Source: Dehalococcoidia bacterium (GTDB lineage Bacteria > Chloroflexota > Dehalococcoidia > Lucifugimonadales > QGNO01). From it: a DNA stretch of 64,000 bases. Location of the stretch: NCBI GenBank assembly GCA_965261445.1, contig CBDHCW010000025.1, forward strand, positions 13,870 to 77,869. The letters are read 5' to 3'. Positions 9,677 to 63,340 of this stretch are shown in pieces. The notes under the pieces are model-generated. The model did no database searches. It was not told the origin of the DNA and saw only the letters and a program-made list of their open reading frames with translations. The translations under genes and the position numbers were made by a program. Positions within the stretch are counted from its first letter, which is position 1. Every line of letters starts with the position of its first letter.

Positions 9677-10777
9677 ATGAAAGCTTTAGTTGTGGGCGGC
9701 ACGGGCCCCACCGGGCCATTGATCGTTCAGGGGCTTCTGGATCGCGGCTATGAGGTCACCGTGTATCATCGTGGCTTCCATGAGCCTGACGACCTTCCCC
9801 AAGTCCATAGCCACGTGCATGGTGACCCCTTCACCAAAGAGAGCTTTGAAAGAGACGTAGAAGGCCAGGCCTGGGACATAGTCGTATCGATGTATGGTCG
9901 CCTTCGCCACATCGCCGACGTGGTTGCCGGCCGTACTCGCAAACTGGTTGGCGCAGGCGGGCCCAGCTTCATCCGCCCCGAGCATTTGACCTTCCCCCAA
10001 GGGTTAGAGATGCCCCTTCCCGAGGAGTTCCCCACCTATACGGAGCGCGACCTCAACCCGTACGGTTTCGCCATTGCACACACCGAGCGGCAGGTAATGG
10101 AGCACCACCGCAACGGCGATTTTGCCGCCGTTATGTTCCGCTATACCTCGGTGTACGGGCCAAGGGCCCCCCGACAGTGGATGTGGTCAATTGTCAAGCG
10201 CGTACTGGACGGGCGCAAGCGTATCATAATCCCCGGCGATGGAAGCCAGCTCCGCCTCACCTGCTATGCCGAGAACGCCGCCCACATGGTTCTCCTTGGC
10301 TGCGACAAATCGGAAGGCGACGGTCATATCTTCAACTCCGTCGACGAAGTGGGATACACCGTCAGTGACACGGTCCGCATCGTTGCTGAGGCGCTTGATC
10401 ATGAGTTCGAAATGATAGAGATAAGCCATCCCATGGCCTACGATCTGGCCGGCGGCTATTCTACGCGGCGTACCGGTCAGCTCAACGTCTACAGCATGAA
10501 GAAGCTGCTGGGCTACAGGGACGTTGTCCCGCCGGATGAAGGTATGCGGCGTTCGGCCAGGTGGATGGTGGACAACTGGTCCAGCCTTGACCATGAACAG
10601 ATGCAGGTCCTCATGGCGGATCCCCTTGCCTACGATATAGAGGACCAACTGATTGCCTCCGCCAAGGAGTGGGCGGGGAGTGTGGAGAGTTCCATTCCCC
10701 AGCCGGAGATTCCTCAACTGGACTCATCGCGTGACTGGCGCGGCGCTTTCAGGCCGCAGCAACCGGGGTCTTCCTGA
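9677..10777 (+). CDS. NAD-dependent epimerase/dehydratase family protein
   Basis: MKALVVGGTGPTGP Rossmann start, preceded by a GAAGGAGG RBS. The longer track ORF from 9494 reads through REP-like repeats and I judge it spurious. Confidence 0.75.
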   Translation: MKALVVGGTGPTGPLIVQGLLDRGYEVTVYHRGFHEPDDLPQVHSHVHGDPFTKESFERDVEGQAWDIVVSMYGRLRHIADVVAGRTRKLVGAGGPSFIRPEHLTFPQGLEMPLPEEFPTYTERDLNPYGFAIAHTERQVMEHHRNGDFAAVMFRYTSVYGPRAPRQWMWSIVKRVLDGRKRIIIPGDGSQLRLTCYAENAAHMVLLGCDKSEGDGHIFNSVDEVGYTVSDTVRIVAEALDHEFEMIEISHPMAYDLAGGYSTRRTGQLNVYSMKKLLGYRDVVPPDEGMRRSARWMVDNWSSLDHEQMQVLMADPLAYDIEDQLIASAKEWAGSVESSIPQPEIPQLDSSRDWRGAFRPQQPGSS

Positions 10778-11201
10778 GCGGGTCACCCCCCGTCGGATTG
10801 CTTCGCTGAGTTTATCCTGAGCCTAGCCGAAGGAATGAAATGAGGGGACACACTAGGGCAACCACGAGGGTTGCCCTGGCACCTGTTCCCGGCCCATTGT
10901 CTTGGGCGCCCACAGGGTATCCCCCGCGATACTGCTTGGCACTACGTCATCCCTCTGGGAATCAGGCCATTTTCGACTTGTGCTATGAGGCCCGACCTCT
11001 CCAGTCCAAGTATCTTTGCACTTCGGCCTCGGCAGTCTTTAGCGGGGCGGACGCTCTCCTGCCTGCTGAACGCTTCTGGCTTTTCTTCCGGGCCTTGTTC
11101 TTCTTCTTACTCACCGCTCAACCTCTTGAGAGGAAATCATAGCATGGGCTTCCGCGTCTGTTCAATGAATTCCCGTAGTGTGGAGCTAGGGGTACACCCG
11201 C

Positions 11202-11971: not shown

Positions 11972-12679
11972 TTACAGCCGTTCCTTCTTCATGTAGAGGC
12001 GGCACACCAAATCTGGCGAGATTCGGAACTTGGTGCCATGATCACGTAGTCCTGGACTACCGGGCTTCTGCTCGCGACAATCGAAGTCAATGACAATTGA
12101 CCCGCGTAACACCTCTGCAATGAAGTCAACGAGGTTAAATACCTCGAAGGCGTCAGCTCTGCGGAAGCGCACGGACTGGCCATTCTTCTCGCCCTGTACC
12201 GCCAAGAGCCTGCGAAGCTTGGCCCCGGCTGCGGCCATTATCTCTTCATGCGACCAGTAGGGGATCGGACCATTGCCCTTCAATGGTCGAACTACGATTT
12301 GCCCGCCGCTATCGTCCACCCTGAAACGGTCGGACCTCCCCTTTATGGTATGCCGGAAGCTCAGTCGCCCCTCTTTGTCCTTCCATCCGTATCTCCGCAC
12401 CATGTAGCGCATTATGGCTTCTGGACCATCTGCTTCCTTGTGGAAAAGGGTGATTAAGCTAGTCTTAGCGGTATACCATTTGAGTTCCCATCCTACAGCG
12501 TCGGGAATGTCCAATGCCCCAGCAGTCAGTCCCAACAAGTCCTCAAGGAATCGCCCAGGCCCGCCCGTGCCACCATAGTGCGAGTCTTGTGGTAAATCAT
12601 ACCAGCCGTGGTCTATGATTGTCCTGACGCGAGCGAATAGTTCGGATCGGGTTCTTGGTGGTTTGTCAGGAAAGGTCAC
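11972..12679 (-). CDS. MvaI/BcnI-family type II restriction endonuclease
   Basis: The 235-aa ORF aligns by eye with my recollection of BcnI. Matching segments are G..GRFLEDLLG, DAVGWELK (D...E.K), LITLFHK, RDHGTKFRI and a C-terminal LYMKKERL. Its GTG start overlaps the methyltransferase stop (GTGA). Confidence 0.8.
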   Translation of the reverse strand: MTFPDKPPRTRSELFARVRTIIDHGWYDLPQDSHYGGTGGPGRFLEDLLGLTAGALDIPDAVGWELKWYTAKTSLITLFHKEADGPEAIMRYMVRRYGWKDKEGRLSFRHTIKGRSDRFRVDDSGGQIVVRPLKGNGPIPYWSHEEIMAAAGAKLRRLLAVQGEKNGQSVRFRRADAFEVFNLVDFIAEVLRGSIVIDFDCREQKPGSPGLRDHGTKFRISPDLVCRLYMKKERL

Positions 12680-13101
12680 TTGATTAGCTGCTTTGCAGTG
12701 AGGACGCGTTCTCTAGCAACTTTGCAGTATTCTTCGGATATGTCTATGCCTATCCAGTCACGCCTAGCCGATTCGGCAGCTATTGCCGTTGACCCGCTTC
12801 CCATAAATGGGTCTAGTACGATTTGGGCATGGGTAGCTTCGATGCATCTTTGTGCCAACTCTACAGGGAAAGGTGCTGGGTGAGGATTGTGGGCTTCCTG
12901 TGGGATACTCCATACATCTCCTTGTGCATTTGCCTTGGGAGCCAGCCGGAATCCAGGATTGGCTATCAGATAGATGACCTCGTAGGTTGGCAGAAAGTAG
13001 CCGGGGTTGAAGTTGATGCCGCCCCGGCGGTGCCAGATGATGATCTGCCGGAGTGGGAACCCTTCAAGAATATCATTCCTGTCTTGCAACAGGCCTCCCT
13101 G
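12676..13101 (-). pseudogene. DNA methyltransferase, C-terminal fragment (AdoMet-binding motif I), separated from its 5' part by an IS
   Basis: DPFMGSGSTAIAA motif. The reading frame continues exactly from the N-terminal fragment once the IS and one CTG copy are removed. Confidence 0.85.
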
Positions 13102-13118
13102 TCAGGTGGACCCCATCA

Positions 13119-14054
13119 TCAGGACAGCGGTGAGGCTAAAATAAGAGAGTCTACCGCTGGGGTGTCTCGTAAACCTTCATCCGATGGTAAGGCTTGTGGA
13201 TGTTCCAGTAAACACCTTTGTGGGCTCACTGCTTGGAACACCTGACCCGGTGACCGATAGCCCAGGGCTTGATGGGGCCGCTCTTGGTTGTAGAAGGCCA
13301 GATAAGCCCCAATCCCCTTTCTGGCCTCAGTCCCATTTTGGTATGCCTTCAGGTACACCTCCTCGTACTTGATGCTGCGCCACAGCCGTTCCACGAAGAC
13401 GTTGTCCATGCACCGGCCCCTGCCGTCCATGCTCACTTGAACGCCTTGCGCCAGCAGCATGCTGGTGAAGGCCTCGCTGGTGAACTGGCTGCCCTGGTCG
13501 GTGTTGAAGATCTGTGGCCGACCCTTGCTCAAGGCCTCTTCCAGAGCCGCAACACAGAAGTCTACCTCCAGGGTGTTGGACAGCCGCCAGGCCAGCACGT
13601 AGCGGCTGTGCCAGTCCATGATGGCCACCAAGTAGAGGAAACCCCGAGCCATGGGTATGTAGGTGATGTCGGTGGCCCACACCTGGTTGACCCGGTTGAT
13701 CTCCAGCCCCCTGAGCAAGTACGGATAGACCTTATGCCCTGGGTTTGGCTTGCTGGTGTTGGGACGCCGGTAGATGGCCTCCAGGCCTATCAGCTGCATC
13801 AGCCGGCGGACCCGCTTGCGGTTGACCTGGTGTCCGTGATTTCTGAGCCAGGCAGTCATCCTTCTGGATCCGTAGAAAGGTGTCTTCAGGTACTGTTGGT
13901 CTATGAGGGCCATCAACTCCAAGTCCTCGGCGCCGGCCTCGGTTGGCAGGTAGTACAACGAGGAGCGGCTGATACCCAGCAAGGCGCACTGGCGCACCAG
14001 AGACAGCTTCGGTTCTTCTCGGTCAATCATGGCCCGGCGTTGGGACCGGCTCAC
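13119..14054 (-). CDS. IS3-family transposase OrfB (DDE integrase core)
   Basis: WATDITYI...[10 protein letters not shown]...[16 protein letters not shown] pattern. It lies in the -1 frame relative to orfA. Confidence 0.9.
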
Positions 14055-14335
14055 AACCCGAAGCTCCGTGACAAAAAATCCCGTTCCACCTTGAGCTGCC
14101 CAATCTGTTGGTAGAGCTGGGCAGTGAGGACCTCTTGGTCCTTCTCCTGGCGTCCAGCACCATTTTCAAAGAGGTGCGGCGCCCCCTGAATCAAGGCCTT
14201 CTTCCAGGCATGGATCTGGCTCGGGTGGACTTCAAACCGGCTGGCCAGCTCTGCAATGGTGTGCTCCCCCTGGAGCGCGGCCAAAGCCACTTTGGCCTTG
14301 AAGACTGGGCTGTGCTTCTTACGTGTTTGCTTCAT
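14051..14335 (-). CDS. IS3-family transposase OrfA (HTH)
   Basis: 94 aa, [39 protein letters not shown]. Ends in a leucine-zipper-like segment. Confidence 0.9.
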
Positions 14336-14414
14336 GTCCTGCTCCTTGTTTCCGTCCTATTTTAGGAGCGGGACTCTCTCTTAGCCACCTGTCCGAATTT
14401 TGGGGTCCACCTCA

Positions 14415-14759
14415 CTGGATGCGCCATTTGTGGTTATAGAAGATAGCCCCATCCTGCCGAAGCACCCGCATCATGGACTTTAGGCATCTTCGCTGCCACG
14501 CAACATATTCCTCATGGGGCATAGCGTCGTCATGGTCGGTATATCCTTCTAGCAGGGCGGCTTGAGGCCATTTGCCTCCGCTTCCGTTCTTTAAGCCGTT
14601 GCCGGTGCTGTTCTTGATGTTGTAAGGGGGGCTGGTAACTATCAGGTCTATGGAGCCAACCGGCATCTTGTCCATTAGCTCCACACAATCGCCCATGTGA
14701 ACCTTGCCAAGCCAAGCTTCCATCATGTGTCTTGGCGTTCGAGTTGCTGATTCAGCCAT
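14415..14759 (-). pseudogene. DNA methyltransferase, N-terminal fragment (catalytic SPPY motif IV)
   Basis: DLIVTSPPYN motif. The ORF runs into the IS end and is stopped by the terminal TGA of the IS. The likely start is the ATG at 14759. Confidence 0.85.
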
Positions 14760-15044
14760 CAGGTCGTTAAAGTTCACCCGATAAGTTCCTCGTAGGGCAA
14801 ACGAAGACCGCAAGATACACCTAGAAGGGAGTTTATCCTCATTTCTCCGTATGCTTGCCCAAGATCCCCGCTAGCCCAAGGTCGGCCAAGTAGCGGTGAA
14901 ATCTCCCTGCAGGAGCCACGCCATGTCCGTAGAGTCATCTTAGCATCGCAGAAGGTCACGATACAAGATTCCTATGTCGGGAAGTTCCAAGTTGTTCGTA
15001 GAGGCTGACTAAGTTGGTCCATCATGAGGAATTATTTCTGACGC

Positions 15045-16816: not shown

Positions 16817-17145
16817 TTGCTTCCTGGTATACGGCTTTCGGGTATCATAAAGGCTAACGGACGTGGATTACAGCTTTCGCGGGTATCCAGGGGGGCTCTG
16901 TTTCCGTTCACCCTGAGCACAGTCGAAGGGAGTGAGCGGAAACCCGACAGCGCCTTGCCCGCTCATAGCCTGCCCCGTCATCCTAAGCGTGGCGCCACCG
17001 TCTGACACCCCCTCCTTCTCACACCCCTCTGCAGACAGTACCCTATCCTCATGGACTTGCACAAAACCACTCAGCAGTACCTATAACGTCGGCGTGGAGC
17101 GCCCATGATAGAAACGTTGCGAAATCACGCCATCAACCGTCGAAT

Positions 17146-17228
17146 CTCGGATTTGTTTCCCATATTTCCCAAAAAGTGGTTCGTTTTTAGCTTTGAAATT
17201 GACATAACGTTGGAAACAATTCTCCTCC
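17146..17228 (+). repeat. ~83-nt dispersed intergenic module, copy 1 (second copy 50962..51046)
   Basis: About 90% identical to 50962..51046 by manual alignment. Contains TTGACA at 17199-17204. Lies 115 nt upstream of a + strand start codon. Confidence 0.7.
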
Positions 17229-19545: not shown

Positions 19546-20511
19546 ATGGTCACCTTGGTCACAGGCGGCAACGGTTTCGTTGCTTCTAACATAGTGAGAG
19601 TCCTCGCTGAGCGCGGCCACCGGGTGGTATCACTCGATATATCGGAGCCGGACGGCATGCTGAAGGCTTACTTGCGACCCTGGCATGACCGCATAACCTT
19701 CCACACGGCTGACGCCCTTGACATCGACGCCCTGGATGAGCTTGCCAGGGATCACTCCATCGACAAAGTCATTCACGCCGTTGCCTACACTCCGGGATCC
19801 CGCGGTCCCGTGGAACACGACTACAGTCGGAGCATAGTAGAGGTGAACGTCATGGGTACCGTCAACCTGCTTGACCTTGCCAGGCGGATATCCGTGCGGC
19901 GTTTTCTCTTCGTTAGTTCCGGCGCAGTCTATGAGGGAGTGACTGCGCCTAGGCCTCTGAATGAGGAGACGTTTGTCCACCCCAAAGCTCTCTATCGCAT
20001 CTCTAAATACGCCTGTGAGCGCATTGCGGAGCGGTATAGGGAGCTCCATGGTCTTGACACGGTGAGCGTCCGACTCGGCGGCCCATACGGCCCTATGGAG
20101 CGCATTACTGGCTACCGCGCCAATATGTCCCTCCTGCACGACTGGACAGGGAAGGCGGTGCGAGGTGAACCGATAGAGGTTATGCCTCAAGCGCCCGGCG
20201 ATTACACCTACGTTCTGGATATTGCGAGCGGCCTTGCCACCGTCCTGGATGCGCCCCGTTTGCCGCACAGGCTGTACAACCTGGCTAGAGGCGCCGCCAC
20301 CCCAACCAGCCGGGTTATCGATGCGTTCCGCAAGGCTTACCCCGATGCTGAATTCGTCGAGCCCATACCTCCGGACCCGGTCAGCGATGACACCCCGCAC
20401 ATGGACGTCTCCCGGATGAGAGAGGACTTCGGCTTTGAGGCCACCACGGATCTGCTGAGCGGACTGAAGGATTACTTCAAGTGGCGCGCTGAAAGCGGGT
20501 ATACGGGGTGA
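19546..20511 (+). CDS. NAD-dependent epimerase/dehydratase family protein
   Basis: VTGGNGFVASN Rossmann motif and YRISKYACE catalytic YxxxK. Confidence 0.8.
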   Translation: MVTLVTGGNGFVASNIVRVLAERGHRVVSLDISEPDGMLKAYLRPWHDRITFHTADALDIDALDELARDHSIDKVIHAVAYTPGSRGPVEHDYSRSIVEVNVMGTVNLLDLARRISVRRFLFVSSGAVYEGVTAPRPLNEETFVHPKALYRISKYACERIAERYRELHGLDTVSVRLGGPYGPMERITGYRANMSLLHDWTGKAVRGEPIEVMPQAPGDYTYVLDIASGLATVLDAPRLPHRLYNLARGAATPTSRVIDAFRKAYPDAEFVEPIPPDPVSDDTPHMDVSRMREDFGFEATTDLLSGLKDYFKWRAESGYTG

Positions 20512-20677: not shown

Positions 20678-21226
20678 CTAACGTTCTTTGTAAACGTTGC
20701 CCTCCCGGGCATCTTGCAATCTGCCACTTTTGGCTAGCTCTTCCGTTGCTGCTAAGTAGGCCACCCAAGACCGCGACCGCTCCCGATTGATAAGGTAACC
20801 AAAGTCAGGCACTTGTATGTCGAGTTCTATAAGTTGTCTTATCACCAAGTTTAACTCGACTATCAGCGCAGAGTGGTCGGATACTCTACTTAAGGAGGAG
20901 GACGACGGCGTTTCAACGTACTCAATCAGGTGGTGCTTGCACTGCCGTAGAGGACCTTCCAAAGCTCGAAATTTACGAACACTTGGGCCATTATGCAATA
21001 ATTCTATGCTTTTCCGGATTATCCATGGACTCACTTGCCCACCACCAAAGATAACACCGGCCAGAGCAATGTATGGCAACAATGCTGCACCTACTGGGAA
21101 GATAGAACTCACACTATCCTCCAGACGGGAACGCCCAGCAGGAAAATCAGCGAGAAAACCCAAGGACGTAATAAGAAGGACGAAGCCAGCCAATGTTGGG
21201 GGCAATTGGGTGCGAAGCCAACGCAT
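20678..21226 (-). CDS. Hypothetical two-TM membrane protein (orphan, lower GC)
   Basis: 182-aa ORF with two N-terminal hydrophobic helices and a ~110-aa soluble tail. I recognise no motif. It sits next to mobile-element debris. Confidence 0.45.
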   Translation of the reverse strand: MRWLRTQLPPTLAGFVLLITSLGFLADFPAGRSRLEDSVSSIFPVGAALLPYIALAGVIFGGGQVSPWIIRKSIELLHNGPSVRKFRALEGPLRQCKHHLIEYVETPSSSSLSRVSDHSALIVELNLVIRQLIELDIQVPDFGYLINRERSRSWVAYLAATEELAKSGRLQDAREGNVYKER

Positions 21227-21279: not shown

Positions 21280-21324
21280 TCTTGCGTTAAGAAACATGGG
21301 CGACACTCTCATGTAGGATGTTCT
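21280..21324 (+). repeat. 45-nt IS-end-like motif (reverse-complement copy at 60261..60305)
   Basis: TCTTGCGTTAAGAAACATGGGCGACACTCTCATGTAGGATGTTCT matches the reverse complement of 60261..60305 with about 5 mismatches. Confidence 0.7.
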
Positions 21325-21344
21325 GGGTAGACATTCGCCGTGAG

Positions 21345-21690
21345 GTGCATTTGGCCCCCGTCGCGCCCCACACCACGTACTTTTGTCTGGGTCTCTGGTT
21401 CGAATTCCCACAACCAGCAACAAGGCGGAATTCATCCGAGTCAATCCGGCAGGAGCGCCGGAATCCAGTCGCGCTAGCACTGGACTGGCAGTAGCAACTT
21501 GACTTTGGCGAGTTCACCTTCAGAGCAGAGTTCGCACGTGAGCTGGTGTCACAAGGGCTCATGTCACACAAGTCCTGAGTTTGCTTCACTTCGTTCCAGA
21601 GGTGAGGTCATTGATTCTGAGCCTCGGTGACCCCATCAGGAGAAAGGCGTTGGGCATTCATACGCTGCGGTATCTGTTGCACCTTCCAGT
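21345..21690 (+). pseudogene. Degenerate HTH (ParB/Spo0J-like DNA-binding) gene remnant, copy 1
   Basis: Roughly 85% nucleotide identity to 40417..40749. Relative to copy 2 the reading frame is broken by an in-frame TAG and a frameshift inside the ELARELGVTRAHVTQVLSLL-equivalent segment. Confidence 0.6.
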
Positions 21691-22870: not shown

Positions 22871-23000
22871 CGAATCGGCTCACTGTGGGAAACGTGGCGG
22901 GAGATTGTATATAATCACTTCATTGCAGGGGACCACGCTGTCTGTATAGTGCTCACAGAAGATGGGCAAGCAAGCCCTGCTGAACCGAGGTAGGAACTAC

Positions 23001-24152
23001 ATGAGGACAAGAGGTACATACGATGTAATCGTCATTGGTGTCGGGGGAATGGGTTCTGCGACGGTGTATGAGCTCGCAAGTCGTGGCATGCGTGTGCTGG
23101 GCCTCGAACGTTTCAGCATACCGAACGATTTAGGGTCGTCGCACGGCGTAAACCGAATTATCCGGATGGCCTACTTCGAGGAACCGTCCTACGTGCCGCT
23201 CCTGCGGCGCTCATACCAGCGCTGGCGTGAGCTGGAGGAGGTGAGCGGGGAGAAGCTGTTGCACATCACTGGTTCAGTGGACACTGGTCATGAGGACGGC
23301 AGAATCTTTGCCGGCTCCCTGCGGTCCTGCCGGGAGCATGACTTGCCGCACGAGGCGCTCACCAGTGCCGAGTTGACTCGGCGCTTCCCGGGATTCCGCT
23401 TCCCGGAGAACTGGATGGGGGTATACCAGCCCGACGGCGGGTTCGTGCTTTCGGAGCGGTGCATAGTCAACCATGTCTTCGCAGCACTGGAGCGCGGCGG
23501 CGAAGTGAGGGCCCATGAGGCGGTGCGGGAATGGAGCAGCGCTGGGGGCACCGTGAGAGTAGAGACCAACCGCGGACTATACGAGGCAGGGGCGCTGGTC
23601 ATTACGGCCGGCGCCTGGGCGGGGCCGCTATTGCCGTCGTTGAGCCACCTGTTGGTACCTGAACGTCAGGTCCTCGGCTGGTTCCAGCCGCTACGCCCGC
23701 ATCTCTTTGCGCTTGGCAACTGCCCGGTGGTGATCGGCGAGTTCGAGGAAGGGCATTACTACACCCTCCCCGTATTCGGCATCCCGGGGTTCAAGATCGG
23801 CAAGTACCACCACCTGTATGATGCGACGACCGCCGACGGCTTAGAGAGGGACTTTCGGGATGAGGATGAGGCTGTGTTGCGGAAGGGTTTGGCACGCTAC
23901 TTTCCTGATGCAAACGGGCCGACGCTCTCTCTCAAGCCCTGCATGTTCACCAATACCCCCGACGGGCACTTCATCATCGATGCGTTGCCCGGGTCTGCTA
24001 ACGTCTTCTTTGCTGCCGGGTTCTCTGGTCACGGATTCAAGTTCTGCAGCGTTATGGGCGAGATCATGGCCGACCTGGCCACAAGAGGAGAGACGGGCCA
24101 TGACATCTCGTTCCTACGCCTTAGCCGCTTCGATCTCCACGCTGACCCATAG
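23001..24152 (+). CDS. Monomeric sarcosine oxidase / N-methyl-L-tryptophan oxidase family flavoprotein
   Basis: YDVIVIGVGGMGSA FAD-binding motif and a C-terminal GFSGHGFKF segment. The start is taken at the internal Met of the 22962 ORF. Confidence 0.8.
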   Translation: MRTRGTYDVIVIGVGGMGSATVYELASRGMRVLGLERFSIPNDLGSSHGVNRIIRMAYFEEPSYVPLLRRSYQRWRELEEVSGEKLLHITGSVDTGHEDGRIFAGSLRSCREHDLPHEALTSAELTRRFPGFRFPENWMGVYQPDGGFVLSERCIVNHVFAALERGGEVRAHEAVREWSSAGGTVRVETNRGLYEAGALVITAGAWAGPLLPSLSHLLVPERQVLGWFQPLRPHLFALGNCPVVIGEFEEGHYYTLPVFGIPGFKIGKYHHLYDATTADGLERDFRDEDEAVLRKGLARYFPDANGPTLSLKPCMFTNTPDGHFIIDALPGSANVFFAAGFSGHGFKFCSVMGEIMADLATRGETGHDISFLRLSRFDLHADP

Positions 24153-24300
24153 CCGCCCTAAGTCTTCCGTTCAAACGGCATCATGCGTCTGCCGGTCACG
24201 GGATCCTTATCCTCGTGACCAAGGGACGCAGGAGTAGGGTGATAGAATGAGAGACGGAGTATAGCTTGGATGAGTAACTTGATACGAAGAACTAGAGCAA

Positions 24301-25239
24301 ATGATAAGTATTGCCAAAGAATTCTATGTGGCGGAATTGAAAGTGCCATCGTATTGGTATCTGGGCAGGGAGATAAACGGTGAAATTCCCGAACCTGCTG
24401 GCTTTGAGATAAACAGAGGATATTGGGTACTCCGCCCCCAAAAGGAACAACCTGAGTTTGATTTGATTGTTGAGTTCGGCTCTGCAACTCTCAAAGATGC
24501 TGAAGACCACGCTTTGAAGGTGGGCAGGATACTTAGTTCCATAGCTTCGGCACATGGAGGGTATCCAAGTGGGGCACCGAAACTCCAACGTGTTGCCTCC
24601 ATAGATCGTGACGGATACCTGAAGTCTCAACACCAATACTGGTACGGTGACAACTCACAAAAGCTCTGGCCCTATGATGGACACGCGAAGCAAGCGTTTC
24701 TAAGAAATCTCGAAATCATCTCTTTGATGGATCATAAAGAGAGATACAAACTACTTGCAGCAATTCACTGGTACGGAATATCCATAAGCACCGATGATCC
24801 AACAGTCAGTTACGTTGCTGCATGGACAGGACTTGAGGTCATTGGTGTAGTTATAAACAGCATATTTCATCCCAACGGACATAAAGCTCCCTGCCAGATT
24901 TGCAAAAATAAAGCAGGCAAAGACAGAGATCGTAAAATGGCCGGTATTGAACACGCATTCGGTTATCTCGCAAGGGAGTCTTTGCCTGGGTCTCCTTCGG
25001 AAGGAAATAGGAAGCTAATTGCAGACGATCTAATCAAGGGTTTCGCGGCTGAAGAAGCTGGCAAGTTGCGTAATTCTGTTGTTCATGGTCTGGAAGAATT
25101 TGAAGTGCTCCTAGAGAAATGTTCGGAGGTCAGACGGCACCTGATTCACATTCTCAACGTCTCAATTCTAACCGCAATGGCCTCATCAGCTTCCGCAAGG
25201 GTAACTGAGGTGGACCCCAAAATTCGGACAGGTGGCTAA
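24301..25239 (+). CDS. HEPN-like (Rx4H motif) protein whose 3' end is replaced by IS3 copy 2
   Basis: The KLRNSVVHG segment fits the Rx4H HEPN motif within a predicted helical C-terminal half. The last 11 codons and the stop come from the IS end. The region has low GC. Confidence 0.5.
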   Translation: MISIAKEFYVAELKVPSYWYLGREINGEIPEPAGFEINRGYWVLRPQKEQPEFDLIVEFGSATLKDAEDHALKVGRILSSIASAHGGYPSGAPKLQRVASIDRDGYLKSQHQYWYGDNSQKLWPYDGHAKQAFLRNLEIISLMDHKERYKLLAAIHWYGISISTDDPTVSYVAAWTGLEVIGVVINSIFHPNGHKAPCQICKNKAGKDRDRKMAGIEHAFGYLARESLPGSPSEGNRKLIADDLIKGFAAEEAGKLRNSVVHGLEEFEVLLEKCSEVRRHLIHILNVSILTAMASSASARVTEVDPKIRTGG

Positions 25240-25284
25240 GAGAGAGTCCCGCTCCTAAAATAGGACGGAAACAAGGAGCAGGAC

Positions 25285-25569
25285 ATGAAGCAAACACGTA
25301 AGAAGCACAGCCCAGTCTTCAAGGCCAAAGTGGCTTTGGCCGCGCTCCAGGGGGAGCACACCATTGCAGAGCTGGCCAGCCGGTTTGAAGTCCACCCGAG
25401 CCAGATCCATGCCTGGAAGAAGGCCTTGATTCAGGGGGCGCCGCACCTCTTTGAAAATGGTGCTGGACGCCAGGAGAAGGACCAAGAGGTCCTCACTGCC
25501 CAGCTCTACCAACAGATTGGGCAGCTCAAGGTGGAACGGGATTTTTTGTCACGGAGCTTCGGGTTGTGA
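25285..25569 (+). CDS. IS3-family transposase OrfA
   Basis: Identical in translation to the copy 1 OrfA. Confidence 0.9.
25542..25548 (+). promoter_or_regulatory. Candidate -1 programmed ribosomal frameshift heptamer T TTT TTG (orfA to orfB)
   Basis: X XXY YYZ pattern in the orfA zero frame (gaT TTT TTG), 19 nt before the orfA stop. The -1 frame is open into orfB. The equivalent site in copy 1 is at 14072-14078. Confidence 0.5.
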
Positions 25570-26501
25570 GCCGGTCCCAACGCCGGGCCATGATTGACCG
25601 AGAAGAACCGAAGCTGTCTCTGGTGCGCCAGTGCGCCTTGCTGGGTATCAGCCGCTCCTCGTTGTACTACCTGCCAACCGAGGCCGGCGCCGAGGACTTG
25701 GAGTTGATGGCCCGCATAGATCAACAGTACCTGAAGACACCTTTCTACGGCTCCAGAAGGATGACTGCCTGGCTCAGAAATCACGGACACCAGGTCAACC
25801 GCAAGCGGGTCCGCCGGCTGATGCAGCTGATAGGCCTGGAGGCCATCTACCGGCGTCCCAACACCAGCAAGCCAAACCCAGGGCATAAGGTCTATCCGTA
25901 CTTGCTCAGGGGGCTGGAGATCAACCGGGTCAACCAGGTGTGGGCCACCGACATCACCTACATACCCATGGCTCGGGGTTTCCTCTACTTGGTGGCCATC
26001 ATGGACTGGCACAGCCGCTACGTGCTGGCTTGGCGGCTGTCCAACACCCTGGAGGTAGACTTCTGTGTTGCGGCTCTGGAAGAGGCCCTGAGCAAGGGTC
26101 GGCCACAGATCTTCAACACCGACCAGGGCAGCCAGTTCACCAGCGAGGCCTTCACCAGCATGCTGCTGGCGCAAGGCGTTCAAGTGAGCATGGACGGCAG
26201 GGGCCGGTGTATGGACAACGTCTTCGTGGAACGGCTGTGGCGCAGCATCAAGTACGAGGAGGTGTACCTGAAGGCATACCAAAATGGGACTGAGGCCAGA
26301 AAGGGGATTGGGGCTTATCTGGCCTTCTACAACCAAGAGCGGCCCCATCAAGCCCTGGGCTATCGGTCACCGGGTCAGGTGTTCCAAGCAGTGAGCCCAC
26401 AAAGGTGTTTACTGGAACATCCACGAGCCTTACCATCGGATGAAGGTTTACGAGACACCCCAGCGGTAGACTCTCTTATTTTAGCCTCACCGCTGTCCTG
26501 A
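25566..26501 (+). CDS. IS3-family transposase OrfB (DDE)
   Basis: 311 aa, with 2 amino-acid differences from copy 1. Confidence 0.9.
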
Positions 26502-26582
26502 TGATGGGGTCCACCTGAAACGGGGCATTACGAATTCCATCCAGATGGACGCGTCTCCCTCAAGTTCAGCCGATATCTCCGA

Positions 26583-26906
26583 ATGTCACTCTTCCTCAAC
26601 GAGTGGATAGGGGGGTTCCAACATCTGTCTGAACCAGATGTTTATAATAACGATGGATCATTTGTAGCAACTGGCGGAGTTGAATGGCGTGTACCTGAAG
26701 AGATATCCAAGCTCATTGAGTCCAGCAGCTCAGAAAAATTCAGAAGGGATCTAGATATCGTCAGTTTAGAAGACGACTCTGTGATCACTGGTTTAGAAGA
26801 CGACTCTGTGATCACTGAATGTGCAACATGGCATAACAGGCCTCCGGAACCTGAATGGGAAAATCCTCTAGAGTGGATTGTTGAACATCCTCCACTTCAC
26901 AACTGA
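26583..26906 (+). CDS. Hypothetical acidic small protein containing a perfect 9-aa duplication
   Basis: 107-aa ORF in the low-GC islet, with LEDDSVITG/LEDDSVITE encoded by a 27-bp tandem duplication. I recognise no family. Confidence 0.3.
   Translation: MSLFLNEWIGGFQHLSEPDVYNNDGSFVATGGVEWRVPEEISKLIESSSSEKFRRDLDIVSLEDDSVITGLEDDSVITECATWHNRPPEPEWENPLEWIVEHPPLHN
26764..26817 (+). repeat. Perfect 27-bp tandem duplication (2 copies)
   Basis: gtttagaagacgactctgtgatcactg occurs at 26764-26790 and again at 26791-26817. Confidence 0.95.
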
Positions 26907-26928
26907 TCCACGCTGCTGACCAGCCTGA

Positions 26929-27426
26929 AGAAGATGCTGGGTATCTCCGCCCGGGCCGTGGGACGTGAAGCCGACACCGACGGGACGCATTGTGCTGGAC
27001 CTCATTAGAGGAAGGATGCCCGTTGCAATTGGGGTGCACCTCAACCTGGTAGACGTGGAGGACGTGGTCCAAGGCCACATCGCCGCATGGCGGCGCGGAG
27101 GCACAGGAGAGCGCTATCTGCTGGGCAACTGGAACACCACGCTGCCGGAGGCGTTGTCCGTACTGAGCGAGATCACCGGTCGACGCTCGCCGCAATTGAA
27201 GGCGCCGTTCCCGCTTGTGCTTGCGGCGGCCTACGTGGACGAACTGCTGGAGGGCGTGATCTTGCGCCGACAGCCGTACATTCCGTTGGAGGCTGCGCTG
27301 CTCGCGCGGCACAGAATGGCGGTTGACTGCACAAAGGCGGTCTCTGAGCTGAGGCTTCCCCAAAGTTCCATCGTGGAGGCTCTGGGAAAATCGGTGCGCT
27401 GGTTTCAGGACCACGGCTACGTATGA
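26929..27426 (+). pseudogene. 5'-truncated NAD-dependent epimerase (HpnA/dihydroflavonol-reductase-like), C-terminal half only
   Basis: PTPTGRIVLDLIRGRMP...LNLVDVEDVVQGH...GERYLLG matches the substrate-binding half of extended SDR epimerases. The Rossmann half is missing. The homology begins where GC content rises again. Confidence 0.65.
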
Positions 27427-40199: not shown

Positions 40200-40416
40200 T
40201 CTTCCCCTCTAGTTGGTGTCATAAAGGAATGTCCCCTCATGGACGGAGATTTACTTGCCAACGTCACATCCTTCTCCCGGTTGGGGCACCCATTAGGGGG
40301 CACCATGCGAACCGAACCGCTGCAAGGACGGTGGCGAATAGCAAAGTGGACCAAACTGCCTACGACGCTCACGTCTATTTTGACTGGTGGTCGCGCCTAG
40401 CGTTGTGCGTCAGGGG

Positions 40417-40749
40417 AATTGGCTCCACGTTACGTCCCACACTACGTACTTTTGTCTGGGCTTGGTTCAAACTCCCACAACCAGCATCAAGACGGAATTC
40501 ATCCGGGTCAATCCGGCAGGAGCGCCGGAATCCGGTCGCGTTGGCCCTGGACTGGCAGCAGCGCCTAGATTCTGGCGAATTCACCACCAGAGCAGAACTC
40601 GCACGGGAGCTGGGTGTCACAAGGGCTCATGTTACACAAGTCCTGAGTTTGCTTCACCTCGTTCCAGAGGTGAGATCATTGATTCTGGGCCTTGGTGACC
40701 CCATCAGGGGAAAGGGGTTGGCATTCATACTTTGCGGCCTCTGTTGCAA
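40417..40749 (+). pseudogene. Degenerate HTH (ParB/Spo0J-like) gene remnant, copy 2
   Basis: Encodes ...RRNPVALALDWQQRLDSGEFTTRAELARELGVTRAHVTQVLSLLHLVPEVRSLILGLGDPIRGKG. It has no credible start or end, and it is embedded in a chimeric 273-aa track ORF. Confidence 0.55.
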
Positions 40750-50057: not shown

Positions 50058-50167
50058 CTGCCACCTCCACCTTCCCCATTGCCCGCCGCTCTTGCTATCC
50101 TTGCCTCACCATGACAACCACCCACACCCACGTCGTCCCCATTCCCAGGGCGGATTCCGCCGCTTCC
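50058..50167 (+). repeat. ~110-bp GC-rich direct repeat, left copy (flanks the TA pair)
   Basis: Roughly 90% identical to 50821..50929 by manual alignment. Confidence 0.8.
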
Positions 50168-50820: not shown

Positions 50821-50929
50821 CTGCCACCTCCCCCTTCCTCATCGCCCGCCGCTCTTGCTATCCTTGCCTCACCATGACAAGCACTCACAACCCACGCCGT
50901 CCCCATTCCCGGGGCGCATTCCGCCGCTT
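50821..50929 (+). repeat. ~110-bp GC-rich direct repeat, right copy
   Basis: See 50058..50167. Confidence 0.8.
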
Positions 50930-50961
50930 TCTTGACGGAATCCTGTCCTTACATGACGATA

Positions 50962-51046
50962 TTCGGATTTGTTTCCCATATTTGCAAAAAAGTGGTTCGC
51001 GTTTAGCTTTGGAATTTGACATAACGTCTGAAACAATTCCCTCCCC
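50962..51046 (+). repeat. ~83-nt dispersed intergenic module, copy 2
   Basis: Matches 17146..17228. Lies 109 nt upstream of the sbcD-fragment start. Confidence 0.7.
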
Positions 51047-59352: not shown

Positions 59353-59967
59353 ATGAGCAAAGGAATTGGTGGGCATTTGAGGAGATCCTTTGTCAGGGGA
59401 CTTTTTGTCCTGATACCTGTTGTGCTTACTTATATGGTACTGAAGCTGCTCTTTGACATAGTAGACGGAGTATTGCAGCCTTTGGTGGAAATAGGATTTG
59501 GCAGCAGGATCCCCGGGCTTGGCATCCTCTTTCTTGTGGTACTGGTCTATTTAGTGGGTCTTCTGCTTGCCAATGTTCTGGGCCGCCAAATGGTTGATCT
59601 GTTGAAGAGAGGACTGCTTAGCATTCCTGTTGTTGGCAGCGTCTACTCCACGGCGGGCAAGCTCATAGACTCTTTCTCTGGCAGCAGCGATATGGGTTTC
59701 AAGCGCGTTGTGGTCATGGAGCACCCAAGAAAAGGGGTGTGGACCGTGGGTTTCCTCACCAGTTTCATAGAGGAGGTTCCCAGCAAACGAATGGCTATAG
59801 TTTACATACCTACCGCTCCTATGCCCAACTCGGGCTGGGTGGCCATCCTTCCCGTAGAAGAGGTCTACGATACCGACTTATCCATAGATACGGCGATGAA
59901 TCTGGTGCTGTCCGGCGGCATTACGGCGCCATCACAGTACAAGCGGATGGCCCTAGCGGCGGACTGA
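59353..59967 (+). CDS. DUF502 domain-containing membrane protein
   Basis: LRRSFVRGLFVLIPVVLTYMVLKLLF start and the conserved PNSGW region. Confidence 0.8.
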   Translation: MSKGIGGHLRRSFVRGLFVLIPVVLTYMVLKLLFDIVDGVLQPLVEIGFGSRIPGLGILFLVVLVYLVGLLLANVLGRQMVDLLKRGLLSIPVVGSVYSTAGKLIDSFSGSSDMGFKRVVVMEHPRKGVWTVGFLTSFIEEVPSKRMAIVYIPTAPMPNSGWVAILPVEEVYDTDLSIDTAMNLVLSGGITAPSQYKRMALAAD

Positions 59968-60130
59968 TTTACACGACCCACAGATGCTTGATAGGTTGAT
60001 AAAACGCTCACTATGTTCAACCCCGTAGGAGGCAATAGATGACTCTGAGCCCCGGAGACAAAGCACCGCATTTCTCGTTGCCGGCTTCCACTGGTGAGAC
60101 CATCTCGCTGCCGGATGCGGTGGGGAGGAA
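59892..60130 (+). repeat. 239-bp direct repeat, copy A (DUF502 3' end + intergenic + first 27-28 codons of bcp)
   Basis: Aligns without gaps to 63102..63340 at a constant offset of 3210 bp, with 8 mismatches. Confidence 0.9.
60039..60120 (+). pseudogene. bcp 5' fragment (first ~27 codons), duplicated copy
   Basis: MTLSPGDKAPHFSLPASTGETISLPDA is identical to the start of the intact bcp at 63249. It then diverges at the junction. Confidence 0.85.
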
Positions 60131-60260: not shown

Positions 60261-60305
60261 AGAACATCCTACATGAGAGTGTCACCCAAGTTTCATAACA
60301 TAAGA
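60261..60305 (-). repeat. 45-nt IS-end-like motif upstream of the transposase stub (copy of 21280..21324)
   Basis: AGAACATCCTACATGAGAGTGTCACCCAAGTTTCATAACATAAGA is the reverse complement of the 21280..21324 motif, with about 5 mismatches. Confidence 0.7.
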
Positions 60306-63101: not shown

Positions 63102-63340
63102 GGCGATGAGCCTGGTGCTGTCCGGCGGCATTACGGCTCCATCGCAGTACAAGCGGATGGCCCTAGCGGCAGACTGATTTACACGACCCACAGATGCTTG
63201 ATAGGTTGATAAAACGTTCACTATGTTCAACCCCGTAGGAGGCAATAGATGACTCTGAGCCCCGGAGACAAAGCACCGCATTTCTCGTTGCCGGCTTCCA
63301 CTGGTGAGACCATCTCGCTGCCGGATGCGGCGGGCAGGAA
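63102..63340 (+). repeat. 239-bp direct repeat, copy B (DUF502 3' fragment + intergenic + start of the intact bcp)
   Basis: See 59892..60130. Confidence 0.9.

Follow-up and report, generated by a model that had tools for sequence, protein, structure and literature searches.

What does the short islet of low guanine-plus-cytosine (GC) content between an oxidase gene and a truncated epimerase gene in a Dehalococcoidia bacterium encode, and how did it come to be there? We analysed the 64,000-nucleotide (nt) stretch of contig CBDHCW010000025.1 that contains it (positions 13,870 to 77,869); this whole stretch is called the window, and its own numbering is used throughout. The islet holds a single gene that is now split by an IS3-family insertion sequence (IS). 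In our reading, which we consider fairly likely, this is a horizontally acquired gene of ~1.3 kb for an ApeA-like HEPN RNase that would act as an infection-triggered effector.

One gene interrupted by a recent IS3-family insertion

A preliminary description of the locus had recognised a 312-amino-acid (aa) open reading frame (ORF) with the motif LRNSVVHG, clipped by an IS3 copy that is flanked by AAC repeats. Both features are there: the frame (24301–25239) carries the motif in a helical region after a distinct ~120-aa N-terminal domain (ORF list, AlphaFold2), and the IS occupies 25206–26518, with a helix-turn-helix (HTH) orfA, an rve orfB and inverted ends. The 3' half of the gene had to be redrawn. 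Joining 25205 to 26522, which removes the IS and one AAC, gave an uninterrupted ORF of 429 codons (24301–26906, stop codon 26904–26906). The TGA near 26630 at which the excised frame had been thought to end (26630–26632) is out of frame, and the "small acidic ORF" said to follow as a separate gene (26583–26906, ATG start, 107 aa) is the in-frame last 107 codons of the 429-aa ORF. Likewise, the IS does not remove the last ~37 codons: its insertion point lies between codons 301 and 302, in the linker after the HEPN domain, so that a C-terminal domain of 128 residues is cut off. Since there is one gene, rather than a truncated gene followed by a small acidic ORF, the candidate partner or antitoxin disappears. 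The parts of the split gene are as follows.

24301–25205, + strand: 5' portion of the ApeA-like HEPN gene, comprising codons 1–301 and the first two bases of codon 302 (ORF list; in silico excision; 86% nt identity to positions 9984–10905 of locus L007)
25203–25205, no strand: left AAC target-site duplication, 3 bp (excision; overlap of the alignments to L007)
25206–26518, + strand: IS3-family element of 1,313 bp, with orfA at 25285–25569 (HTH_Tnp_1), orfB at 25566–26501 (rve) and imperfect 24-nt inverted ends
26519–26521, no strand: right AAC target-site duplication (excision; overlap of the alignments to L007)
26522–26906, + strand: 3' part of the ApeA-like HEPN gene, from the last base of codon 302 to codon 429 and the stop (beta-rich C-terminal domain; in frame after excision; aligns with the C-termini of full-length homologues)
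26764–26817, + strand: 27 nt repeated once in tandem, in frame and without a mismatch (LEDDSVITG twice), within a C-terminal-domain loop that is modelled at low confidence; absent from L007 and from the homologue P0001

Comparison with intact relatives gave the same structure. When the window was aligned by blastn to the intact gene of L007, the locus of the closest relative, two high-scoring segment pairs were obtained (24287–25205 and 26519–26790), whose L007 coordinates overlap by exactly 3 nt, AAC. Homologue clusters (n=91, mostly 410–430 aa) cover 95–99% of the reconstructed protein, and the closest homologue, P0001, is 77% identical to it and agrees at every residue across the junction (...SASARVT/GHYEFHPDGRVSLK; ARVT/GHYEFHPDG). 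The gene structure and the insertion are, in our judgement, essentially certain. The element itself has the overlapping orfA (HTH) and orfB (DDE/rve), the terminal inverted repeats and the 3-bp direct repeats that define the IS3 family; in these features and in its length of 1.3 kb it resembles known members, and we saw nothing unusual about it.

A second, inverted copy of the IS lies at 13102–14414. As the two copies differ at only 7 of 1,313 positions, transposition was recent, and the gene has very probably been inactivated here by this insertion, in line with the ongoing inactivation first proposed for the locus. Between the window gene and the L007 gene, the ratio of non-synonymous to synonymous substitution rates (dN/dS) is 0.33 overall and 0.55 in the C-terminal domain; the overall value indicates that the gene was functional and under purifying selection until recently.

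The other IS copy is flanked by CTG/CTG and splits a gene for an N4-cytosine DNA methyltransferase, which upon excision becomes an open frame of 292 codons (244 aa from the first in-frame ATG; best PDB match 8s9n, E 2.8e-35). It adjoins an apparently intact ORF for an R.MvaI/BcnI-like restriction endonuclease (11972–12676, minus strand, E 1.3e-12), the two genes with the IS occupying 11972–14813. Both IS copies of the window thus interrupt defence-type genes, and because the methyltransferase is split the endonuclease is left without its cognate methylase. Separately, a stem-loop near 26617–26641 was considered as a terminator and rejected: its 8-bp stem (26620–26627 / 26636–26643) lies within the coding sequence, is followed by no T-run and is missing from the results of the terminator scan.

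A central HEPN-like domain with an invariant Rx4H motif

To characterize the encoded protein, we collected its relatives. Among species-representative genomes the gene is present in 14 of 185,579, all of them Dehalococcoidia metagenome-assembled genomes (MAGs) and one of them SAR202; a metagenome scan added only one new locus, which is partial. None of the homologues found carries a name or a Pfam domain, so the family is unannotated and, as far as these sequence searches reach, found only in Dehalococcoidia. A search of 1.84 billion protein representatives yielded 145 relatives, including a distant group of ~360–400 aa, while a third search with the diverse alignment returned only 4 proteins. 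Two alignments were used below: A1, with 71 full-length family members, and A4, with 43 sequences that include distant relatives (15–24% identity to the first sequence).

AlphaFold2 (models m8a9093430652 and m178734c516dd; at full length, predicted local distance difference test (pLDDT) 82 and predicted template-modelling score (pTM) 0.75; domain-only pLDDT 87.5) predicts three domains: an alpha/beta domain (residues 1–120), a helical domain (~125–295) and a beta-rich C-terminal domain (302–429, in the model from about residue 305). The helical domain consists of helices H1 (145–163, with W157), H2 (167–189, with E179), H3 (250–262) and H4 (267–292). H3 ends in RNSVVH and is followed by a loop (263–266), and between H2 and H3 lies an insert of 60 residues (190–249) that contains a putative zinc knuckle.

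24301–24660, + strand: N-terminal alpha/beta domain, residues 1–120 (AlphaFold2 secondary structure; aligns from about residue 52 with the ApeA Mid domain)
24673–25185, + strand: central helical HEPN-like domain, residues 125–295 (AlphaFold2; ApeA profile matches)
24835–24837, + strand: codon of E179, in VAAWTGLE of helix 2 (invariant in A1 and A4; aligns with the invariant ApeA E381 of W..LE)
24868–24954, + strand: putative zinc knuckle, H190-x7-C198-x2-C201-x16-H218, between HEPN helices 2 and 3 (all four residues invariant in 71 members)
25069–25086, + strand: R257-N-S-V-V-H262, predicted catalytic Rx4H, at the end of helix 3 (R and H invariant in A1 and A4; aligns with ApeA LLRNTIVHN)

A1 has 23 invariant positions, among them R257, H262, E179, W157, H190, C198, C201 and H218; R257 and H262 lie in L-R-[NSDH]-x-x-V-H-G, with N, S, D or H after the R in most members, E179 in VAAWTGLE and W157 in HWYG. 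In A4 the only invariant residues are the tryptophan of helix 1, the glutamate of helix 2, the first cysteine, R and H, while the second cysteine is nearly so. The motif LR[NSDH]xxVHG is therefore retained, with R257 and H262 invariant, in the 71 members as well as the 43 diverse relatives, down to an identity of 15–20%, and the R/H conservation on which the preliminary description had staked its HEPN assignment is borne out. The C-terminal domain has invariant positions of its own (P309, R312, S314, W330, W405 and W414). The region of the H-x7-C-x2-C-x16-H motif gives weak Zn-ribbon Pfam matches in relatives, and we consider a zinc knuckle probable.

HEPN domains are marked by a conserved Rx4-6H with a polar residue (N, D or H) after the R, a conserved acidic residue in helix 2 and frequent inserts between helices 2 and 3 (PMC3710099), and all of these are present here as far as sequence and predicted secondary structure show; the motif and the invariant upstream Glu are placed as in HEPN domains (AlphaFold2; PMC3710099), which supports the earlier interpretation of Rx4H as a HEPN signature. 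When the domain-only model was compared with the PDB by Foldseek, ranks 1–4 went to HepT toxins (probability 0.72–0.87, in matches short of significance). Pfam matches to HEPN families were all sub-threshold: DUF4209, which is the C6orf70 HEPN family (PMC3710099), in 10/71 members, and HEPN_Apea, RiboL-PSP, HepT-like and Cthe2314 in other members and relatives, the HEPN_RiboL-PSP match in one relative sitting on the RNxxxH motif itself. A significant profile match to an established HEPN family was obtained through ApeA.

Remote homology to ApeA

ApeA is a single-gene abortive-infection system whose HEPN domain cuts tRNA anticodon loops; a ligand binds a pocket distant from the active site, and cleavage follows, the active form being an oligomer. 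It has ~600 aa, arranged as a helical N-terminal domain, a Mid domain and a C-terminal split HEPN domain (bioRxiv 10.64898/2026.01.26.701840). A profile of the close family, compared with PDB sequences, gave only a spurious ATP-synthase match, and the link to ApeA appeared only after the distant relatives from the 1.84-billion-protein search had joined the profile. With the A4 profile, the only matches of hmmsearch among all PDB sequences were Ec4ApeA (9hxm, E 0.0037) and Ec3ApeA (9hxj, E 0.19), in two colinear blocks: "AirWYr...flaaWiGLEsi" against ApeA "AFRFFRNG...FTAYWSALESL", and "lRNeivHG" against ApeA "LLRNTIVHN".

For profile-to-profile comparison, five ApeA homologues of 20–100% identity were taken from plasmids and aligned; their invariant residues include W377, L380, E381, R508, V512 and H513. 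Aligned by hhalign to this set, the superfamily gave a probability of 95.9% (P 5.6e-9, 128 columns), compared with 90.5% against a single ApeA sequence and 69.7% for the close family alone, while reversed and column-shuffled profiles stayed at or below 0.1%. The alignment spans A4 HMM positions 50–180 (window residues ~52–182) and ApeA 255–385, that is, Mid and H1–H2. Altogether, we hold it very likely that the family is homologous to ApeA and has a HEPN domain.

Horizontal acquisition and recurrent genomic contexts

The islet differs in composition from its surroundings, as first noted: GC content falls straight after the oxidase stop (24152) and recovers at ~26930. Without the IS, the islet comprises 24153–25205 and 26522–26930, 1,462 bp at 46.9% GC, compared with 56.9% for the window, 60.6% for the oxidase and 63.0% for the epimerase remnant; no contiguous 1,465-bp stretch of the window falls below 49.2%. 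GC at third codon positions (GC3) is 0.43 in the islet gene and 0.73–0.75 in the adjoining genes. The gene is also the only ORF that the window has in common with L007 (24287 to ~26885, 83–86% nt identity), whose flanking genes are entirely different, and in nearly all genomes its GC3 (0.39–0.62) is well under that of its neighbours. The shared ORF, the differing neighbours and the low GC3 support the horizontal acquisition that had been suggested from composition.

We then inspected the contexts of the family at 17 distinct loci. A PLD/SNF2 helicase gene stands beside the family gene in 7/17, accompanied in six by a PIN gene and in five by an Eco57I/MmeI-type methyltransferase. In four loci (L014, L018, L032 and L033) the order is an Eco57I/MmeI/TaqI_C-type methyltransferase (~1,200 aa), PIN (130 aa), the family gene and the PLD/SNF2 helicase (~1,200 aa); in these four and in L005, all inspected in detail, the operon genes lie on one strand and are tightly spaced, overlapping in some. 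L019, L005 and L009 have either parts of this arrangement or a diverged form of it. Other loci have, nearby, a C5 methylase with DUF4928, Fic, BrxC/D-like, VapBC, a CBASS cyclase with patatin, GmrSD or McrB. Among 118 neighbours, restriction-modification, SNF2, PLD, PIN, AAA_21 and transposase families recur, and no single partner is common to all loci. Across five operons of the L014 type the helicase is 89–92% identical and the methylase 70–78%, while the ApeA-like gene reaches only 47–73%, which fits rapid diversification or cassette exchange. The recurrent four-gene operon could represent a multi-gene defence system of Dehalococcoidia that is not yet described, or else a hotspot for cassettes within such a system.

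These operons bear on the main rival explanation, in which the protein is an accessory subunit (a sensor or RNA-targeting arm) of a methyltransferase/PIN/PLD-SNF2 restriction-like system, and solitary copies are orphaned relics with little function of their own. The same-strand, tight or overlapping arrangement recurs in L014, L018, L032 and L033, with parts in L019, L005 and L009, and spans methylases that are only 34–37% identical. However, the window copy stands alone, and like it the closest relative and several others lack all three partners; the window/L007 pair has been under purifying selection over its whole length (dN/dS 0.33) all the same; and ApeA, the nearest characterised relative, acts as a single gene. 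In addition, L005 has a toxin-antitoxin pair between the gene and the helicase, suggesting a cassette hotspot rather than an obligate complex. We therefore regard the subunit model as rather unlikely, while noting that it and an ApeA-like effector are not mutually exclusive.

A proposed infection-triggered RNase

By analogy with ApeA and other HEPN effectors, we infer that the protein would dimerise by way of the HEPN domain, and that the dimer would have a composite RNase site independent of metal. Until the domains on either side detected a sign of infection, the protein would remain inactive, the putative sensors being the N-terminal domain, which is partly ApeA Mid-like, and the family-specific beta-rich C-terminal domain. 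Once activated, it would cut host RNA, most likely tRNA, and so abort the infection, working either alone or within the restriction-like operon. How firmly these steps can be put differs. A defence role for the family is reasonably probable: the defence context first suspected for this locus does recur in other genomes. The RNase activity is proposed by analogy with ApeA and other HEPN effectors. The choice of tRNA as target is more tentative and follows ApeA.

Several results weigh against this proposal. The reconstructed protein matched nothing at E<=1 among the curated models of Pfam, NCBIfam and PADLOC, the ApeA models of PADLOC included; in the family, HEPN_Apea (PF18739) was matched by 1/71 members at E 0.011, short of the curated threshold. 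The main hhalign alignment is limited to helices 1–2 and the second half of the N-terminal domain, and the Rx4H block aligns only separately (23 columns, P 8e-4, probability 24%). The HEPN fold matches are weak (E>=0.25, TM ~0.4–0.5, with AbiV, 1wty and 1wol lower in the list), and Foldseek with the full-length model returned only noise from the PDB. Several loci, that of the closest relative included, have ordinary metabolic surroundings and no defence neighbours, and searches of plasmids, phages and IMG/VR viral contigs found no relatives. Because the ApeA models are unmatched, and because the architecture also differs (only the Mid-like and HEPN H1–H2 regions align), the protein falls outside ApeA as the curated models define it; a relationship to ApeA, which the preliminary description had named, does stand (hhalign 95.9%, P 5.6e-9).

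Could the protein instead have a housekeeping or regulatory role, as a HEPN-like or MauJ-like protein that processes RNA or binds nucleic acid through its zinc knuckle, and take no part in phage defence? Its distant relatives do match Pfam MauJ (13/43, best E 1.9e-7), some loci are purely metabolic, and HEPN domains are known in non-defence RNA-processing proteins (PMC3710099). Against this, the gene is confined to a single class, with 14 of 185,579 species representatives carrying it, and has a different position in each genome and atypical GC3; moreover, it evolves faster than its operon neighbours and is dispensable here, where the IS has split it. We consider this alternative improbable. 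The earlier two-gene model, a ~349-aa protein lacking ~37 codons and then a separate small acidic ORF as a possible partner or antitoxin, has practically nothing left to recommend it and is refuted: the ATG-initiated 107-aa ORF at 26583–26906 exists, but after excision it is in frame with the upstream gene and forms the conserved C-terminal domain of every full-length homologue, and the TGA at 26630 is out of frame.

Returning to the ApeA-like effector, a more specific version joins it to the operon. The family might be the infection-sensing RNase module of a four-gene, restriction-like operon with which Dehalococcoidia defend themselves and which has not been described before. It would then be a compact derivative of ApeA, with the beta-rich C-terminal domain and the zinc knuckle in place of ApeA's ligand-sensing N-terminal domain. 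With these new parts it would respond to a different infection signal, and it could also work alone. We regard this version as possible though doubtful. We see the family as a new branch within a type of bacterial immune protein that is already known, and not as a type of its own.

What the proposal would mean goes beyond this locus. Defence systems have hardly been explored in Dehalococcoidia and SAR202-type Chloroflexota, which are difficult to grow in culture. The family offers a compact candidate of ~420 aa, related to ApeA, with different sensor domains and a conserved putative zinc knuckle. Should it prove active, it would carry the ApeA-type "sensor plus HEPN tRNase" design into another architecture and another phylum, and would provide a natural comparison for how such effectors switch on. 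The operon of type IIG-like methylase, PIN and PLD-SNF2 helicase is a candidate multi-gene system in its own right. The window copy itself is more ordinary: an acquired defence-type gene, freshly turned into a pseudogene by an IS3 insertion.

Flanks of the islet and other repeats in the window

Three further features border the gene.

22962–24152, + strand: left backbone flank outside the islet, N-methyl-L-tryptophan-oxidase-like FAD oxidase (NF008425, 464.6 bits, cutoff 257; DAO domain)
24153–24300, + strand: low-GC leader from the oxidase stop to the gene start, unique to the window locus (GC profile; homology to L007 begins only at 24287)
26938–27426 (ORF 26965–27426), + strand: 5'-truncated remnant of an HpnA-type sugar epimerase, from about residue 166 onwards (TIGR03466 positions 176–327 of 327)

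In the leader, the promoter scan found no sigma-70-like promoter on the + strand. At the edges of the cassette there are only chance-level short repeats, with no att-like sites or longer flanking repeats among them. As for a tRNA or non-coding RNA integration site, the sole tRNA of the window is at 51.7 kb, and no Rfam match lies near the islet. An exact-match look-up of the window oxidase, made for an IS-free sister assembly, found nothing on record. A second low-GC stretch at 41.8–47 kb was considered as an island and rejected, since it contains amidase and peptide ABC-transporter genes.

The preliminary description had proposed that the islet replaces half of the epimerase gene. The truncation is real: the remnant matches only positions 176–327 of the HpnA model, scoring 150.9 bits against a cutoff of 367.65 for TIGR03466, the Pfam epimerase domain was not found in it, and it is not full-length. 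Its protein-level similarity extends back to ~26938, at most ~30 nt from the stop codon of the islet gene, and no part of the window contains the N-terminal half that it lacks. Locus L023, which is 92% identical in nt to the remnant from codon ~171, keeps the first ~170 codons. That the arrival of the islet caused the truncation is plausible. Against this proposal, all eleven of the closest epimerase relatives inspected in other MAGs are themselves fragments (96–253 aa) with different breakpoints, one of them fused to an MMPL fragment, although some come from low-coverage assemblies (one contig 2x) and may be assembly errors. The four such loci examined (L021–L024) have IS21, an integrase or a type I restriction system next to them; the epimerase locus seems generally unstable, a recurrent rearrangement hotspot. 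Two other explanations were rejected: the full-length epimerase at 19546–20508 is unrelated to the remnant and is neither its source nor a duplicate, and an IS-mediated inversion is not the cause, as the target duplications are intact at both IS copies.

The window also contains several repeats. A non-coding repeat of ~315 nt (79–94% identity) without an Rfam or tRNA match occurs twice, at 21339–21653 and 40408–40721; its first copy adjoins a 45-nt inverted match to a third site (21280–21324 / 60261–60305), and one copy lies beside an ORF of 182 aa (20678–21226, minus strand, 49.5% GC) without a Pfam or PADLOC match. Direct repeats are found at 59892–60130 / 63102–63340 (239 nt, 97%), 50058–50129 / 50821–50892 (72 nt, 92%) and 17120–17200 / 50936–51016 (81 nt, 78%).

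Comparison with known systems

Among known systems, ApeA is closest to the reconstructed protein. The two have in common a HEPN core with an aromatic...W..LE signature in helices 1 and 2 and LRNxIVH in the same order, homology that reaches into the preceding Mid-like region, and a single polypeptide in which non-catalytic domains surround the HEPN domain. Each is also met within or close to restriction-modification genes (ApeA: PMC3710099; the family: the loci described here). Some ApeA proteins bind zinc, and the window protein has a putative zinc knuckle. The differences are nevertheless substantial. At 429 residues, the window protein is ~180 shorter than the ~600 of ApeA and lacks its 200-residue helical N-terminal domain. 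The HEPN domain of the window protein lies in the middle of the chain, where that of ApeA is C-terminal, and is followed by the family-specific beta-rich domain; a putative zinc knuckle is conserved between helices 2 and 3. Concerning ApeA itself, we observed that an Ec4ApeA-type gene adjoins the anti-phage gene ppl on plasmid NZ_LC556211.1, and that the Ec4ApeA-type gene is labelled just "hypothetical protein" on 109 enterobacterial plasmid records, mostly conjugative.

In fold, the domain model comes closest to HepT and the minimal MNT-HEPN toxins (7bxo, 8xdj, 8yuf), in which helix 3 likewise ends with Rx4H. None of these matches reaches significance, however, and these toxins are ~130 aa and are neutralised by an adjoining nucleotidyltransferase, whereas such a partner is not conserved in the window family. 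A toxin-antitoxin pair is not what we find here: no neighbour is common to all loci, and the downstream ORF that could have been a partner belongs to the gene itself.

The Pfam domain MauJ (PF17419), named after a protein of the methylamine-utilisation cluster, is matched by distant relatives over helix 1, helix 2 and the zinc knuckle, in one case as far as Rx4H. These matches involve 13/43 sequences, P0141, P0169, P0200, P0219, P0228 and P0252 among them (best E 1.9e-7), and most are below the 28-bit cutoff, whereas 0/71 close family members, the window protein included, match at E<=10. We know of no function for MauJ, and a literature search was uninformative. MauJ could in its turn be a HEPN domain of the ApeA-like kind.

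Finally, DARNA is a single-protein HEPN tRNA nuclease that is switched on by single-stranded DNA bound by a phage single-stranded-DNA-binding protein (bioRxiv 10.64898/2026.02.22.705581). As is proposed for the window protein, it has a HEPN nuclease and a sensor domain fused in one polypeptide; it differs in having an N-terminal HEPN domain and a helical sensor, and no sequence relationship between the two was detected.

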